From a virus (Duplodnaviria > Heunggongvirae > Uroviricota > Caudoviricetes): DNA of 5,380 nucleotides. Shown piece by piece: positions 1 to 5,380 of this stretch. A program made the position numbers and the translations under genes. The stretch lies in IMG/VR virus record IMGVR_UViG_2667527898_000018; one strand, written 5' to 3'. The notes beneath the pieces are model-generated. The model did not search any database. It saw nothing but the letters and a program-made list of their open reading frames with translations, and had not been told where the DNA came from. The stretch's first letter is position 1; each line of letters begins with the position of its first letter.

Positions 1-52
1 AAAGGTATGCGTGGAAACGCATATGGCCTTAGTTGGTCAGATATATTGGGAC

Positions 53-67
53 TCGCTTTGTCAGCGA
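53..67 (-). promoter_or_regulatory. nutR-type boxB hairpin (N-utilisation site) downstream of the cro-like gene
   Basis: Minus strand reads UCGCUGACAAAGCGA: 5-bp stem with a GACAA pentaloop, the same loop and inner stem as the + strand copy at 2962-2976. It lies just downstream of the cro-like stop, where nutR sits in lambdoid phages. A weak boxA-like CGCUAUUUUCACAA is at 82-98 on the minus strand. Confidence 0.6.
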
Positions 68-105
68 CGTAGGACGAATGTCCATTGTGAAAATAGCGGT
101 GTTAC

Positions 106-339
106 TTATGCAGCCGATGCTCTACGCGATACGAACACTAGGTTTTCCTTTTTCACAGGTTTATAACCCGTGAAATTACGAGTAGCTTCTTCGATTGCAT
201 TCGCTTTATCAGGGGAAGCTCTTCGAAATCCATATGCAATCTGGTCAAGATAGCCAACTGAAGTTTTCGCTAATGCGGCGAGTCGCTTCCATTCCTCGCT
301 AGAAGCCTCTTTTCGCCAGCGTAGTAGTTCATTACTCAT
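106..339 (-). CDS. cro: Cro/YdaS-like small HTH DNA-binding protein (77 aa), in the cro position
   Basis: 77-aa ORF divergent from the cI-like repressor across a 113-bp operator region. RBS GGAGG (complement of 345-349) sits 5 nt before the ATG. The product has an HTH-like segment (LAALAKTSVGYLDQIAYGF) followed by RRASPDKANAIEEAT, typical of Cro/YdaS-type regulators. Call rests on position plus family pattern. Confidence 0.7.
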   Translation of the reverse strand: MSNELLRWRKEASSEEWKRLAALAKTSVGYLDQIAYGFRRASPDKANAIEEATRNFTGYKPVKKENLVFVSRRASAA

Positions 340-452
340 TAGTGCCTCCGTTTATCACACAGAACAACTTTACCATTTTGATAAATCAACCGCAATGTAA
401 ATTTATCATATTGCGTATTTATCCATTTGCTAAATAGAGGGAAAATTGTGAG
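340..452. promoter_or_regulatory. Divergent immunity operator/promoter region (OR-like) between cro-like and cI
   Basis: AT-rich 113-bp divergent intergenic region with three copies of a 7-bp core: ATTTATC at 401-407 and 417-423, and its complement GATAAAT at 380-386. A 15-mer AATTTATCATATTGC (400-414) recurs almost identically at 2848-2862. Candidate cro promoter on the minus strand: -35 TTGCGG (complement of 390-395), 17-bp spacer, -10 TAAAGT (complement of 367-372). Confidence 0.6.
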
Positions 453-1157
453 ATGGAAAACAAAGATATTCGCAAATCGAATCTGGCGTTTTTGCTAGAT
501 GAGCATAAAAAAATCGCGGGTAACACTAATGCAAGCTTTGCCGATAAGCTTGGGGTTAGCCCTTCTCAACTCACGCAAGTCTCCGGTGAAAAAAGCACTC
601 GAAACATAGGGGATAAACTAGCAAGAAAATTTGAAGCCGCGCTTGGGTTACCTAATGGGTGGCTTGATTTGGTACATGATGTAACACCAATTGCATCATT
701 CTCAGATTCTTTAACTTTTGTCGGTCAGGTAAGAAAAGGGTTAGTGCGCGTGGTTGGTGAGGCAATTCTTGGTGTTGATGGTGCCATCGAGATGACCGAA
801 GAGCGCGATGGGTGGCTCAAAATTTATAGCGATGATCCAGATGCCTTTGGTCTTCGTGTGAAAGGAGACAGCATGTGGCCCAGAATAAAATCAGGAGAAT
901 ATGTACTCATTGAGCCTAACACCAAAGTATTCCCGGGTGATGAGGTGTTTGTCAGAACCGTTGAAGGACACAACATGATTAAGGTTCTTGGCTATGACAG
1001 AGATGGAGAATACCAATTTACAAGCATTAACCAGGATCACAGGCCTATAACGTTGCCTTATCATCAAGTAGCAAAGGTGGAGTATGTAGCTGGTATTCTG
1101 AAGCAATCTCGCCATCTGGATGACATCGAGGCAAGGGAGTGGCTGAAAAGTTCGTGA
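453..1157 (+). CDS. cI: Phage CI/LexA-type repressor with C-terminal S24 peptidase (autocleavage) domain, 234 aa
   Basis: N-terminal HTH (NASFADKLGVSPSQLTQVSG); C-terminal S24 signature with catalytic Ser in GDSMWP and a downstream Lys (NMIKVLG). Divergent from the cro-like gene across an operator-rich spacer. Confidence 0.9.
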   Translation: MENKDIRKSNLAFLLDEHKKIAGNTNASFADKLGVSPSQLTQVSGEKSTRNIGDKLARKFEAALGLPNGWLDLVHDVTPIASFSDSLTFVGQVRKGLVRVVGEAILGVDGAIEMTEERDGWLKIYSDDPDAFGLRVKGDSMWPRIKSGEYVLIEPNTKVFPGDEVFVRTVEGHNMIKVLGYDRDGEYQFTSINQDHRPITLPYHQVAKVEYVAGILKQSRHLDDIEAREWLKSS

Positions 1158-1237
1158 CTTCATCGTCACATAGCTGGTAACCAGTGGCCTGAAGAGACGT
1201 TTGGGTGATGTACATAGCATTTCTGGATAAAAATACA

Positions 1238-1281
1238 GATTCCCTTTATGGGAAATGAATCTATAATTCCCAAAGAGGGAA
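1238..1281 (+). promoter_or_regulatory. Candidate higB promoter with two palindromic operator-like sites
   Basis: Perfect -10 TATAAT at 1262-1267, flanked by two palindromes of identical architecture TTCCC-N5-GGGAA at 1240-1254 (TTCCCTTTATGGGAA) and 1267-1281 (TTCCCAAAGAGGGAA). No good -35 is evident. RBS-like AGAGGGA at 1274-1280 lies inside the second palindrome. Confidence 0.5.
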
Positions 1282-1293
1282 CAAAATCGGATT

Positions 1294-1581
1294 ATGAAGG
1301 TCTTAAACGTAGAGAAGCTTCACAGTTTTAGCCAGAAGCACAATCAGGCCAAGGGGGCTTTAGACTCTTGGTATGATGAAGTGATAAGAGAAAACTGGAA
1401 AACGACTCAAGACATACGGAATAGATTTAATTCTGCCGACTTCCTTCCTAACAACAGGGTAATTTTTAATATAAAAGGCAATAACTATCGGCTCGTTGTC
1501 CAAGTTGTTTACCAGGCAGGAATGGTCATAGTTGAAAGAGTTGGAACTCATGCAGAGTACGACAAGTGGAGGCTTAAATGA
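1294..1581 (+). CDS. higB: HigB-family type II toxin (RelE/ParE superfamily mRNA interferase), 95 aa
   Basis: C-terminal region FNIKGNNYRLVVQVVYQAGMVIVERVGTHAEYDK matches the recalled HigB pattern (E. coli HigB: FNVGGNELRVV...REVMTHKEYD). Toxin-first gene order is typical of higBA. Stop overlaps the next start in ATGA (1578-1581). Confidence 0.85.
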   Translation: MKVLNVEKLHSFSQKHNQAKGALDSWYDEVIRENWKTTQDIRNRFNSADFLPNNRVIFNIKGNNYRLVVQVVYQAGMVIVERVGTHAEYDKWRLK

Positions 1582-2234
1582 ATCGAACTAGCTGGCGCAT
1601 CATTAAAAATAGTGAAGAGCATGCTGCAGCTATGGAAAGGCTCATTGAACTTGCGTCTAGTGATTTACAACCTGGAACTGAAGATTTTGATGAGTTTGAA
1701 CTACTAGGCTTGCTTATCGAGCACTATGAGTCACGCGAGTTCCCTATGGACAAGCCAGATCCCATAGAAGCAATCAAGTTCCGTATGGATCAACAAGGCC
1801 TCTCTTATGCCGATATGAAACAATACATTGGCTCAGCATCTAAAGTATCTGAGGTCTTAAATCGTAAGCGTCCATTAAGTCTTTCAATGATCCGTAGACT
1901 ACATGACGGACTTGGAATTCCTGCAGATATCTTAATTCAAGATATGAGCGCAATTGAATGGAGCCTAGTTGACGCAGAGGAAGAAGAAACAGCCATGACT
2001 AGCGTCATTGCTCGGTGTGAGTCAGCCGTCACATCACCTTCTGCTTATTTCGCTGAAAAGGCTACAGAATCTTACTTTTCAAAAATGTTGTTCAGCGCAG
2101 TAAGGGGTAACGGCAAATGCAAAGAAAAACGGAATGTTTTTTCTTTGATAAGTAACTTGTCATCAAGTTTCACAGCGGCTAGCAACCTGAATGACGAAAT
2201 GACTTCTGACGGAAATTACTTATTATTACCATGA
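1578..2234 (+). CDS. higA: HigA-family HTH antitoxin with ~96-aa C-terminal extension (candidate chaperone-addiction segment), 218 aa
   Basis: Residues ~67-122 (KFRMDQQGLSYADMKQYIGSASKVSEVLNRKRPLSLSMIRRLHDGLGIPADILIQ) match the HigA HTH as recalled from E. coli HigA (…MDQYGLTLSDLPEIGSKSMVSRVLSGKRKLTLEHAKKLATRFGISPALFID, which ends there). This ORF continues ~96 residues further. Start overlaps the higB stop (ATGA) and its stop overlaps the next start (ATGA, 2231-2234). Confidence 0.85.
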   Translation: MNRTSWRIIKNSEEHAAAMERLIELASSDLQPGTEDFDEFELLGLLIEHYESREFPMDKPDPIEAIKFRMDQQGLSYADMKQYIGSASKVSEVLNRKRPLSLSMIRRLHDGLGIPADILIQDMSAIEWSLVDAEEEETAMTSVIARCESAVTSPSAYFAEKATESYFSKMLFSAVRGNGKCKEKRNVFSLISNLSSSFTAASNLNDEMTSDGNYLLLP

Positions 2235-2635
2235 AAATTGAACTCATTAGCAAAAAAGTTGAACGCTTGGTTATGACACGGCTAGAAGGCGATTCAACAG
2301 CAAAAAAATCCATAAAAACAACCGTTAATCTAAATAATGAACTTTACACTAATGTGAAGGATTCAAAGCTATTTAGAGTGAGATATTTTGCCTCCGTAAC
2401 TATTGAAGGCAGGCTTGAGATGGACATCACATACGACTTTGACTTCCGGTCAGAAGATGATTTTTCTCATGAAATGGCAAAATCATATGAGGTAAGGTCC
2501 ATTGCTCCCAATATGGCATATCCCTATATAAAAACATATGCCGAGCAAATTATCCTCATGTCAAACCTTGGTAGGTTCACTCTGCCTTATTTTGATTTCT
2601 TGGCCAATCCCATGGAAACGAACAGTAATAAGTGA
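2231..2635 (+). CDS. SecB-like chaperone (candidate TAC chaperone), 134 aa
   Basis: C-terminal region SIAPNMAYPYIKTYAEQIILMSNLGRFTLPYFDF aligns with the recalled E. coli SecB segment [33 protein letters not shown] (PN..PY, (R/K), L.P, (N/D)F). Size is close to SecB (155 aa). Translationally coupled to the extended higA. Confidence 0.7.
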   Translation: MKIELISKKVERLVMTRLEGDSTAKKSIKTTVNLNNELYTNVKDSKLFRVRYFASVTIEGRLEMDITYDFDFRSEDDFSHEMAKSYEVRSIAPNMAYPYIKTYAEQIILMSNLGRFTLPYFDFLANPMETNSNK

Positions 2636-2643
2636 AATTCCCC

Positions 2644-2670
2644 ACCCGGCCTCAGCGCCGGGTTTTCTTT
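2644..2670 (+). terminator. Rho-independent terminator ending the cI/higBA-secB transcription unit
   Basis: GC stem CCCGGC (2645-2650) / GCCGGG (2657-2662) with a 6-nt loop, followed by TTTTCTTT (2663-2670), 10 nt after the SecB-like stop. Confidence 0.7.
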
Positions 2671-2772
2671 GCCCCACGTTCGCCCACCTAAAAACACATA
2701 ATCGATTGTATTTATTGAAAAACTGATAGATACAACTTGCTAAACAACGCAATCCAGATCTCCCTCAAATCT

Positions 2773-2893
2773 CTTTATTTATCCTGTCGAATTCCTACAA
2801 CAAAATAAAACACCATAAGAATCAATACGATATTTGAAAACCAAGAGAATTTATCATTTTGCTATTGCCATTAATTTATCATTCCGATAAAGT
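2773..2893 (+). promoter_or_regulatory. OL/PL-like operator-promoter region for the early-left operon
   Basis: ATTTATC core at 2777-2783, 2849-2855 and 2874-2880. The 15-mer AATTTATCATTTTGC (2848-2862) is 14/15 identical to the OR copy at 400-414. Palindrome TTTATC-ATTCC-GATAAA at 2875-2891. Candidate PL: -35 TTGCCA (2865-2870), 17-bp spacer, -10 TAAAGT (2888-2893), the same -10 hexamer and spacing as the candidate cro promoter. Confidence 0.5.
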
Positions 2894-2961
2894 TCACCCA
2901 TCAGCAGGACGCACTACTCACCAGGGCGGTGAATATACAACGATTCGAATATGAATCTACG

Positions 2962-2976
2962 GCGCTGACAAAGCGC
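2962..2976 (+). promoter_or_regulatory. nutL boxB RNA hairpin (P22-type)
   Basis: GCGCTGACAAAGCGC is a perfect 5-bp stem with a GACAA pentaloop, matching the P22 boxB sequence as I recall it (GCGCUGACAAAGCGC). It lies in the ~240-nt leader between the candidate PL and the N-like gene. No convincing boxA upstream. Confidence 0.7.
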
Positions 2977-3141
2977 AATAACCAAAGTGAACTTTGGGGT
3001 GTGGTGAAGGGTTCATGGACGGGAATATGTCGCACGTAAAGCGGCGAGGCCTGCGGGACTATTGCCGAATTGAAGTAGGCCGAAACAGGTCGAAATGGGT
3101 CTCCCACCTACCACACCACCAAAGTTCATCAGGAGGTCTAT

Positions 3142-3525
3142 ATGACACGCAGAACTCAGTTCAAAGGCAATTCACGTTCTCGTCGTCGTGAGCGTTTAAA
3201 GGTAAAGGCATTAGCTAACGGCGTACTGGCCCGCGAAGAAGCAATAAGTTCAGAAGTATTACACCGCCCTACTCTAAGCAGAGCGCAGATTCAGGCTAAA
3301 GGTACTCACGAAACGCCTGAGCGCATAGAAGACGCTAAGCCAGTTAAGTTCATGGCACAGGACGTGATCTGGCAGCAGAAAGAATACAGACGCAATCTGG
3401 AGCGAGCGACCATTGTGTACGCGAATGAGTTTGGACATAAGCAACCAGAAACTGGTGTATGTCTTCCAAACGTAGCCATTTACGCTGCAGGCTACCGGAA
3501 ATCAAAACAACTGACAGCAAGATGA
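3142..3525 (+). CDS. N: N-family transcription antitermination protein (P22 gene 24-like), 127 aa
   Basis: N-terminal arginine-rich motif GNSRSRRRERLKVKA resembles the P22 N motif GNAKTRRHERRRKLAIER. C-terminus …NVAIYAAGYRKSKQLTAR resembles the recalled P22 N C-terminus (…VALYAAGHRKSKQITAR). Strong RBS AGGAGG at 3131-3136; first gene after OL/PL and the boxB hairpin. Confidence 0.8.
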   Translation: MTRRTQFKGNSRSRRRERLKVKALANGVLAREEAISSEVLHRPTLSRAQIQAKGTHETPERIEDAKPVKFMAQDVIWQQKEYRRNLERATIVYANEFGHKQPETGVCLPNVAIYAAGYRKSKQLTAR

Positions 3526-3586
3526 CTTGTGTTGGTCGCCAGAAAATGAGATTAGGCAGCAAACCACTTATTTGAGAGGAATTAAT

Positions 3587-4210
3587 ATGTCATCAATCCG
3601 CTTAACTACGAGAATGAAAGAGGAAATCGCTCGTAACGCTTTAATTAAGTCTGGGGTTTTCACTGAACTTGAAGAAGTAACAAAGTTAAAGAACCAGCTT
3701 GCACTTGACGCCAGAGTTATTGCGTTTGGCGGTAAAAAGAAAACTGAGGAAGTGGATCAGTTATCATCCAAGTTGGTAGCTATAAGTGAAGAACTTGAAA
3801 AGATGGGATGTTCATTTTACTCATACGATGTTAGTTCTACTTCAATTTATCTGACTGTATCTGGCAGAAGGGTTGGATGGCATTCATATGGGAAAGACGG
3901 CAACGGCAAAGATATATTGCTCCCTACTCCGACCAAAGATAAATGCATGTTTGACGCAGAGCACGAAATAACAAAAAGGTTTGATGAAATCTGCGCATTG
4001 CAACAAAAACTTGAAGCCAAGAAAAAGGATATCGAATCAAATGTATGGGCTGCTTTAAACTCAGTCACAACAGTTAAGCGACTTATTGAAGTTTGGCCTG
4101 AAAGCAAAGAATTGCTACCAAAAGAAGCAGATAAAGCAAGTACAGCACTTCCTGCTTTACGGGTAAAAGATTTGAATAAAATGATTGGACTTCCTTCCGA
4201 GGCCGCATAG
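3587..4210 (+). CDS. Hypothetical protein, 207 aa (early-left operon accessory gene)
   Basis: ORF track gives 3527-4210, but the ATG at 3587 has an RBS GAGAGGA (3574-3580) with ~6-nt spacing, so 3587 is the likelier start. Hydrophilic, Lys/Glu-rich, no family recognised. Its stop codon TAG (4208-4210) sits in the loop of a terminator hairpin. Confidence 0.6.
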   Translation: MSSIRLTTRMKEEIARNALIKSGVFTELEEVTKLKNQLALDARVIAFGGKKKTEEVDQLSSKLVAISEELEKMGCSFYSYDVSSTSIYLTVSGRRVGWHSYGKDGNGKDILLPTPTKDKCMFDAEHEITKRFDEICALQQKLEAKKKDIESNVWAALNSVTTVKRLIEVWPESKELLPKEADKASTALPALRVKDLNKMIGLPSEAA

Positions 4211-4226
4211 TCGGCCTTTATTTTTG
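4199..4226 (+). terminator. Rho-independent terminator overlapping the stop codon of the 207-aa gene
   Basis: Stem AGGCCG (4200-4205) / CGGCCT (4212-4217), loop CATAGT containing the TAG stop, followed by TTATTTTTG (4218-4226). Confidence 0.6.
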
Positions 4227-4254
4227 CCATAAACAACAGAATAAACACTGCACT

Positions 4255-4282
4255 GTGTATTCATTCCAACGAGTGAATACAC
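4255..4282. repeat. Perfect 9-bp inverted repeat GTGTATTCA-N10-TGAATACAC
   Basis: GTGTATTCA (4255-4263) and TGAATACAC (4274-4282) are exact reverse complements separated by 10 nt, in the intergenic gap between two terminator-like hairpins. Function unknown. Confidence 0.5.
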
Positions 4283-4344
4283 GGAGCAATGTCGCTCGTA
4301 ACTAAACAGGAGCCGACTTGTTCTGATTATTGGAAATCTTCTTT

Positions 4345-4371
4345 GCCCTCCAGTGTGAGGGCGATTTTTTA
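4345..4371 (+). terminator. Rho-independent terminator-like hairpin upstream of the 122-aa gene
   Basis: Stem GCCCTC (4345-4350) / GAGGGC (4357-4362), loop CAGTGT, followed by GATTTTTTAT (4363-4372). Confidence 0.65.
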
Positions 4372-4390
4372 TCTATGAGGATATGAACAG

Positions 4391-4759
4391 ATGTCAAACA
4401 TCAAAAAATACATCATTGATTACGACTGGAAAGCATCAATAGAAATTGAAATCGACCATGACGTAATGACAGAGGAAAAACTTCACCAGATTAATAATTT
4501 CTGGTCAGACTCTGAATACCGACTCAATAAACACGGCGCTGTATTAAATGCTGTATTAATCATGCTGGCGCAACATGCTCTGCTTATAGCAATTTCGCAA
4601 GACTTAAATGCATATGGTGTTGTTTGTGAGTTCGACTGGGATGATGGAAATGGTCAGGAAGGATGGCCTCCAATGGATGGTAGTGAAGGAATAAGAATTA
4701 CCGATATCGATACATCAGGAATATTTGATTCAGATGATATGACTATCAAAGCCGCCTGA
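4391..4759 (+). CDS. Hypothetical acidic protein, 122 aa
   Basis: Clean ORF with RBS-like GAGGA (4377-4381) upstream. C-terminal half is strongly acidic (CEFDWDDGNGQEGWPPMDGSEGIRITDIDTSGIFDSDDMTIKAA). No family recognised with confidence. A weak hairpin AAAGCCGC/GCGGCTTT (4748-4769) spans its stop codon. Confidence 0.6.
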   Translation: MSNIKKYIIDYDWKASIEIEIDHDVMTEEKLHQINNFWSDSEYRLNKHGAVLNAVLIMLAQHALLIAISQDLNAYGVVCEFDWDDGNGQEGWPPMDGSEGIRITDIDTSGIFDSDDMTIKAA

Positions 4760-4834
4760 GCGCGGCTTTACCGCATACCAATAATGCTTCACGAGAGGCA
4801 TTTTCGTTATGCAATCAAATATAAGGAGTTACCC

Positions 4835-4969
4835 ATGATGCACTTTCAGCTCGCGGGTAGCGGCGTCATGTCCGCTTTCTACCCGCACGAATCTGAATTA
4901 TCACGCCGAGTTAAACAATTAATCAGAGCAGCAAAGAAACAACTGGAGGCGTTATGCGCAATGAAATAG
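4835..4969 (+). CDS. cIII: CIII-like small protein (candidate FtsH inhibitor), 44 aa
   Basis: RBS AAGGAG (4823-4828) 6 nt before the ATG at 4835; the longer track ORF from 4784 has no RBS. MMHFQLAGSGVMSAFYPHESELSRRVKQLIRAAKKQL resembles recalled lambda CIII MQYAIAGWPVAGCPSESLLERITRKLRDGWKRL (M-x-aromatic-x-I/L-A-G, then P-x-E-S-x-L-x-R in an amphipathic helix). Confidence 0.6.
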   Translation: MMHFQLAGSGVMSAFYPHESELSRRVKQLIRAAKKQLEALCAMK

Positions 4970-5106
4970 CCATTAATCACCAGATGCTTCGTGCTGCACA
5001 GAACAAAGCAGTAATAGCCCGATTTATTGGTGATTCAAAAATGTGGCTTGAAGCAAATAAAGCGATGAAATCAGCTATCAACCTTCCGTGGTATCGCAGG
5101 AAATGA
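4954..5106 (+). CDS. kil: Kil-like small protein (candidate host cell-division inhibitor), 50 aa; absent from the ORF track
   Basis: My translation from the ATG at 4954 is MRNEIAINHQMLRAAQNKAVIARFIGDSKMWLEANKAMKSAINLPWYRRK. RBS GGAGG at 4945-4949. It overlaps the 3' end of the cIII-like gene by 16 nt in another frame, as cIII and kil overlap in lambda. IARFIGDSKMWLEA resembles the recalled lambda Kil segment IATFIGDEKMFREA. Confidence 0.5.
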   Translation: MRNEIAINHQMLRAAQNKAVIARFIGDSKMWLEANKAMKSAINLPWYRRK

Positions 5107-5178
5107 GTTTTACAGATAACTGGTCAGACGAAGAATTCATTCGTCAGATGAAAGAATTAATCGGTAACGAAGGATGAG
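5104..5178 (+). pseudogene. Possible 5' remnant of an early-left gene truncated by the IS insertion (24 codons)
   Basis: ATG at 5104 overlaps the kil-like stop in ATGA. The frame (MSFTDNWSDEEFIRQMKELIGNEG) runs to a TGA at 5176-5178 that coincides with the first bases of the putative IS terminal inverted repeat. No RBS judgement possible; could equally be a genuine micro-ORF or noise. Confidence 0.25.
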
Positions 5179-5380
5179 GTGTACTGGCAATAGCGGACAC
5201 TACCATTTGTTCTTTTTTTAAGTAGCTATCTGATGATATTTTTCCCTGAAGGCTGCCGGGGAGATATTCCCCAGACGAGAGTGACGACGCTGACGATTGT
5301 AGAAAATCTCAATGTATTCCCGTATTACTGAGATGGCTTCATCCCGGTTATTAAAACGATAGTAGCTCAGGCTCTCATAT
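5176..5380 (-). mobile_element. IS3-family insertion sequence, terminal inverted repeat and 3' end, continuing beyond the window
   Basis: Plus strand from 5176 reads TGAGGTGTACTGGCAATAGCGGACAC, resembling the recalled IS3 terminal repeat pattern TGATCTTACCCAGCAATAGTGGACAC. The adjacent minus-strand ORF encodes a typical IS3-family OrfB C-terminus. Boundary is approximate (about 5 bp either way). Confidence 0.7.
5218..5380 (-). CDS. IS3-family transposase OrfB, C-terminal 53 codons (partial; 5' part lies beyond the window)
   Basis: My minus-strand translation is …YESLSYYRFNNRDEAISVIREYIEIFYNRQRRHSRLGNISPAAFREKYHQIAT*, with the FYN..RRHS.LG..SP..F motif of the IS3-family integrase-core C-terminus. 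Stop codon is the complement of 5218-5220. Not in the ORF track because it runs off the window. Confidence 0.8.
   Translation of the reverse strand, partial: YESLSYYRFNNRDEAISVIREYIEIFYNRQRRHSRLGNISPAAFREKYHQIAT

Follow-up and report, generated by a model that had tools for sequence, protein, structure and literature searches.

The stretch of DNA analysed here (the window, 5,380 bp), which is the entire contig CCCF01000209.1 of the Escherichia coli draft assembly GCA_000941435.1, ends inside a copy of IS600, a member of the IS3 family. The junction between prophage and element at 5174/5175 is a derived insertion, and it is real and common to a lineage. Taken as a whole, the observations are very probably explained by transposition of IS600, in an E. 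coli lineage, into a lambdoid prophage, where it landed between positions 5174 and 5175, 68 bp downstream of kil. The features of this region are as follows.

4954..5106, plus strand: kil, 50 aa, intact; last complete prophage gene before the IS (Pfam and PHROG matches)
5103..5177, plus strand: small ORF coupled to kil, cut after codon 24 (PHROG 2123; uninterrupted form 52 aa)
5172..5174, no strand: predicted target triplet GGA, expected to be repeated at the other IS end if the insertion is simple (from the empty site and the 3-bp duplications of relatives)
5175..5380, minus strand: terminal 206 bases of IS600 (IS3 family), orfB-proximal, transposase-distal (IRR) end; the contig ends here (match to complete IS600, RefSeq labels)
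5175..5200, minus strand: terminal inverted repeat (IRR) of IS600, TGAGGTGTACTGGCAATAGCGGACAC, identical to the terminus of complete 1264-bp copies
5218..5379, minus strand: tail of the IS600 transposase orfB, last 53 codons and stop, end of the integrase-core domain (translation, Pfam rve_2)

The IS600 end and its boundary with the prophage

As a reference we used a complete IS600 copy of 1264 bp, cut from E. coli O26 strain RM10386 (L002, 6367-7630), whose termini read TGAGGT... and ...ACCTCA and which encodes an orfA of 100 aa and an orfB of 272 aa. Window positions 5175-5378 align without gaps to positions 1-204 of this copy, with 98.5% identity (3 mismatches in 204; E = 5e-110). In a megablast search of complete E. 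coli genomes, the matching copies carry the RefSeq label 'IS3-like element IS600 family transposase', and the RefSeq annotation of complete reference copies mentions a 'programmed frameshift' (orfA/orfB). The match to IS600 is not a chance one. Of 5426 complete E. coli genomes, 2958 contain the same 204 bases, in up to 43 places each (median 2), and the segment is a very common multicopy repeat. The best complete-genome match, labelled IS600 by RefSeq, reaches 99.0%, and an identical variant was found in none of the 5426 genomes. The repeat at 5175-5380 is IS600, the same element and not a new IS. IS600 belongs to the IS3 group, was first described in Shigella sonnei, and is abundant in Shigella and STEC.

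The final base of the prophage is 5174, and the terminus of the element starts at T5175. When the two termini of a complete copy are aligned, their first 6 bases, TGAGGT, are identical and 17 of 26 positions match. The end present in the window begins TGAGGTG at 5175, and the opposite end in complete copies reads ...GGCTACCTCA.

On the minus strand, positions 5218-5379 form an open frame of 53 residues, YESLSYYRFNNRDEAISVIREYIEIFYNRQRRHSRLGNISPAAFREKYHQIAT, which ends in REKYHQIAT before a stop codon at 5218-5220. These residues correspond to the C-terminal end of the reference orfB (272 aa), and they match PHROG transposase families and Pfam rve_2 (38.5 bits; cut-off 22), the last over 53 residues only, with the catalytic DDE residues beyond the contig end. 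Relative to the O26 copy, three base differences produce three amino-acid changes (H to Y, M to I, and A to T) in these last 53 residues, and a fourth difference in orfB, at the first residue, goes back to the two final bases of the contig, which are probably wrong. A look-up of the 53-aa stub returned the window itself as the sole match. The last two bases of the window (5379-5380, AT) differ both from IS600 copies and from the sibling contig L015, which has TT, and are likely a contig-end sequencing or assembly error.

The sequence-only reading had placed an IS3-like terminal repeat at the end of the window, with the 3' end of a transposase on the minus strand. The first is upheld by the 98.5% identity over 204 bases to IS600 and the second by the open frame with its rve_2 match; the proposed start of the element at about 5176 has to be moved by one base, to T5175.

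The interrupted gene and the IS-free relatives

The gene preceding the junction is a true Lambda_Kil gene: its product scores 72.6 bits against Pfam Lambda_Kil (cut-off 27.6), matches PHROG 2055 at 1.2e-35, and has the exact sequence named in sources as Kil of phage HK022. Immediately upstream lies a cIII-like ORF of 44 aa (PHROG 550; Pfam Lambda_CIII). The stop codon of kil (TGA, 5104-5106) overlaps the ATG at 5103-5105 of a small ORF, as ATGA. This ORF runs for 24 codons (MSFTDNWSDEEFIRQMKELIGNEG) to a TGA at 5175-5177, which is the first three bases of the IS. The 24-aa stub matches PHROG 2123 at 4.3e-17 and the intact 52-aa form from the relative L010 does so at 6.6e-42, while the next ORF in L010, of 56 aa, matches PHROG 1723 at 1.2e-34. 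Both families occur in HK97, HK022, CUS-3 and similar phages, and the 'recombinase' label that they carry is probably given by association. A gene downstream of kil is therefore disrupted, its 52-aa ORF cut to 24 codons, as had been proposed from the sequence, and the IS does supply the TGA of the short frame; the frame starts at 5103 instead of 5104. The earlier placement of the element directly after kil was approximately right, in that the IS begins 68 bases past the kil stop.

Two relatives without the IS, L010 and L013, both from Logan assemblies, match window positions 3456-5174 at 99.9% identity and then run on past the site. In both of them and in L001 (strain 2013C-4974) the site is empty, with GAAGGA followed uninterrupted by GATATTCATG; across the site L001 reads ...GGTAACGAAGGA GATATTCATGTCACTTGC... 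Because these IS-free relatives read through, the IS is a derived insertion, and on this reading no IS-free strain should carry TGAGGTGTACTGG directly after GAAGGA. The comparison with uninterrupted relatives suggested by the sequence-only reading has thus found the site empty in three of them, and the junction is not conserved where the IS is absent.

Past kil, L010 carries in order the intact 52-aa ORF, the overlapping 56-aa ORF, a Rad52-family recombinase, HNH, SSB and anti-RecBCD genes; other relatives have ERF or RecT modules at the place of the Rad52-type module. The expectation that recombination genes normally follow kil accordingly agrees with the closest relatives (Rad52-type, HNH, SSB and anti-RecBCD) and with the others (ERF or RecT). 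The insertion falls within the AAGGAG ribosome-binding site of the 56-aa ORF, 9 bases ahead of its ATG.

The kil-coupled ORF straddles a mosaic boundary (window 5103-5150; L003-L006, 10713-10820). Its first 16 codons are constant across modules and its C-terminus switches with the downstream recombination module; the ORF is 52 aa long before a Rad52-type module, 56 aa before the ERF-type module of EH031 and 35 aa before a RecT-type module. Its end always overlaps the start region of the next gene, and when two diverged versions of the overlap region are compared, the 56-aa frame remains similar at the protein level.

Between cI and N, window positions 1294-2635 encode a HigB toxin, a 218-aa HTH protein and a 134-aa protein, which resemble a toxin-antitoxin-chaperone cassette. 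HigB (95 aa) scores 104 bits against Pfam; the 134-aa protein is named SecB by UniRef and had no Pfam match. The ORFs of cI, the cro-like gene, HigB, the antitoxin and the 134-aa protein all have their full length, and many genomes encode identical proteins, in keeping with the earlier statement that the immunity region and the toxin-antitoxin-chaperone module are intact.

IS600 copies near kil in other strains

In three other strains, a complete 1264-bp IS600 lies within about 100-500 bp of the site, in the same orientation, and the prophage resumes after each. The insertion points are listed below.

EH2252: after window-equivalent 5079, inside kil; same orientation; duplication ATC
RM10386 and five similar genomes: after window-equivalent 5115, in the kil-coupled ORF; same orientation; duplication CAG
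EH031: in erf; same orientation; imperfect duplication ATC/ACC

These copies (L027, 2831-4094; L002, 6367-7630; L008, 5770-7033), which lie in the kil-erf stretch of O26-type strains, are complete, 1264 bp long and mutually identical. They share the element, its orientation and the operon with the IS600 of the window. The RM10386 copy even interrupts the same small ORF, 59 bp upstream, and the EH2252 copy interrupts kil, 95 bp upstream. They differ in their insertion points and in being visible from end to end, together with the prophage that resumes after them, and the prophage mosaic around them is partly different, with a superinfection-exclusion gene in place of DUF2528 and ERF in place of the Rad52-type module. 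The O26-type insertions are independent of the event in the window.

IS600 insertions in one orientation are thus seen at window-equivalents 5079, 5115 and 5174 and in erf, with one more at about 4355. We regard it as improbable that the interval from kil to the recombinase is a preferred landing zone for IS600, or that such insertions were selected for grounding the prophage while sparing immunity and the toxin-antitoxin module. The clustering and the common orientation largely reflect how the search was built: its query combined kil with this IS end, and pieces were joined within one strand only. Because of this confounding we treat the pattern as no more than a lead and did not adopt a hotspot.

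In pathogenic E. coli and Shigella, IS600 and its relatives are well known both for being scattered through prophages and for breaking short-read assemblies. An IS600 end after kil is an already known kind of event, and an ordinary one. In STEC, IS600 and related elements are reported to be amplified, with 27 copies in one O121:H19 strain, and to undergo enhancer-mediated excision and flanking deletion (PMC9397093). In the O26:H11 strain B44, IS600 in the early region of an Stx1a phage was linked to altered induction (PMC10042803). As in the window, IS600 there interrupts the early regulatory/replication region of a lambdoid prophage; in B44, however, it lies upstream of q, on the rightward side, whereas the IS600 of the window, known from sequence alone, lies in the leftward operon after kil. 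The main value of the present finding is correct annotation.

The far side of the junction

Six sibling assemblies (L012 and L014-L018) share the identical 40-base junction, which makes seven in all, and every sibling contig that carries it ends 109-217 bases into the IS. Since the whole contig stops inside a multicopy repeat, its abrupt end is not evidence of truncation: a short-read assembly broke off there, and the break lends no support to the sequence-only proposal of a truncated early-left operon in a possibly defective or rearranged prophage. In practice, such an end should be read as an assembly artefact of a multicopy repeat and not as the sign of a truncated prophage. The 40-base junction had 0 matches in the GTDB species-representative genomes and is absent from JGI metagenome contigs and from the complete E. 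coli RefSeq genomes, in the latter of which the best two-piece matches are different insertion points.

Three other accounts of the junction were weighed. That it is an assembly chimera of a prophage contig and IS600 reads would fit a fragmented draft that contains redundant small contigs (L026), as well as the seemingly wrong final two bases of the window, but an identical junction occurs in seven assemblies from different samples and prophage gives way to IS sequence precisely at the canonical TG terminus, which is what real transposition predicts, making a chimera extremely improbable. It is also improbable, if less extremely so, that what is present is no more than a dead remnant, a terminal piece of IS600. 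At most 217 bases of the IS are documented at the junction in any assembly; those of the window are nevertheless 98.5% identical to active-type copies and keep the orfB tail as an open frame. A single-copy piece would break seven assemblies only if other IS600 copies exist, and this point is neutral on the completeness of the element.

A stronger competitor, which we still think unlikely, is that IS600 marks a rearrangement breakpoint, at which the remainder of the early-left arm, with the recombination genes and xis/int, was lost or inverted through recombination between two IS600 copies or through a deletion next to the IS. An IS-excision enhancer is one possible promoter of such a deletion. 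What is left would be a grounded prophage in which immunity and the toxin-antitoxin module survive. The far side of the IS lies beyond the contig end, which leaves room for such an event, and IEE-mediated deletions beside IS3-family elements have been described in STEC (PMC9397093). Matches to IS600, IS629-like and IS1 elements in the backbone moreover point to decay in several lineages, decay and rearrangement both being common in it. In L019, a relative that has the same immunity region, the backbone is 99.98% identical from window 1 to 4194, where it breaks off at IS1 and everything further left is gone, with chromosomal yafO/yafN/dinB following; prophages of this type do, then, lose their left arm at an IS. 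Against a breakpoint in the window, all three of the other IS600 copies nearby are simple insertions with 3 extra bases and intact continuation, and collapse of the repeat during short-read assembly fully accounts for the contig end.

As the nearby copies are simple insertions followed by resuming prophage, a simple insertion is favoured here as well. We consider it reasonably likely that the IS600 of the window is complete and flanked by GGA and that the prophage (56-aa ORF, Rad52-type recombinase, HNH, SSB, anti-RecBCD) resumes after it. IS3-family elements move by a copy-out/paste-in route via a circular intermediate and make 3-bp duplications. With a simple insertion, IS600 would be followed, about 1.26 kb on from 5175, by ...GGCTACCTCA-GGA-GATATTCATGTCAC. 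If the prophage resumes, the left end of IS600 would join GGAGATATTCATGTCAC and the Rad52-type gene; with a duplicated GGA, the left end ...GTGTCCGTTAAACTCAGGCTACCTCA would be succeeded by GGAGATATTCATGTCACTTGC and the Rad52-type gene. The region upstream of the 56-aa ORF would in that case read CCTCAGGAGATATTCATG, so that an AGGAG ribosome-binding site would be kept at the same spacing. The predicted opposite junction (IS600 left end, GGA and GATATTCATG...) had 0 matches in the GTDB representatives, and with NNN for the triplet it had 0 matches in JGI metagenome contigs; the complete E. coli RefSeq genomes lack it as well. A homology search with the Rad52-type protein of an empty-site relative returned only cluster representatives of at most 96% identity.

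A simple insertion would destroy only the 52-aa ORF between kil and the recombination module, which would be its sole certain casualty. The transposase genes of IS600 lie antisense to the leftward early (PL) operon. In the lysogen the insertion should be silent, because PL is repressed, and once the prophage is induced, transcripts modified by N would probably extend through the IS; relief of IS polarity is a classical property of the phage N protein. Scans for promoters and terminators over 4700-5380 and over the complete IS600 gave counts close to those of shuffled sequence, and an Rfam search of the whole window returned nothing at the gathering threshold.

Several side observations concern the prophage backbone elsewhere. 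In the same assembly, a second contig of 749 bp (L026) matches window 2854-3602 (nutL/N region) with one mismatch, and similar contigs occur in sibling assemblies (L024, L025); contigs of this type represent either a second near-identical prophage segment in the genome or assembly bubbles. In L019 (11054 onward) and L020 (11054-11175), the prophage, in both 99.98% identical as far as this point, stops at window 4194, in the Nmad5 gene region, at IS1 (InsA). In the metagenome-derived L011 (4083-4135) and L023 (1309-1447), whose backbone is 99.85-99.9% identical, the left end of an IS600 in the opposite orientation is found at about window 4355, just upstream of the DUF2528 gene and beside a host TGAGG that mimics the IS terminus. 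At the other end of L011 (1-52; window about 325), a terminus reading ...CCTGGGGCGGTTCA, which we take to be IS629/IS1203-like, abuts the start of the cro-like gene.
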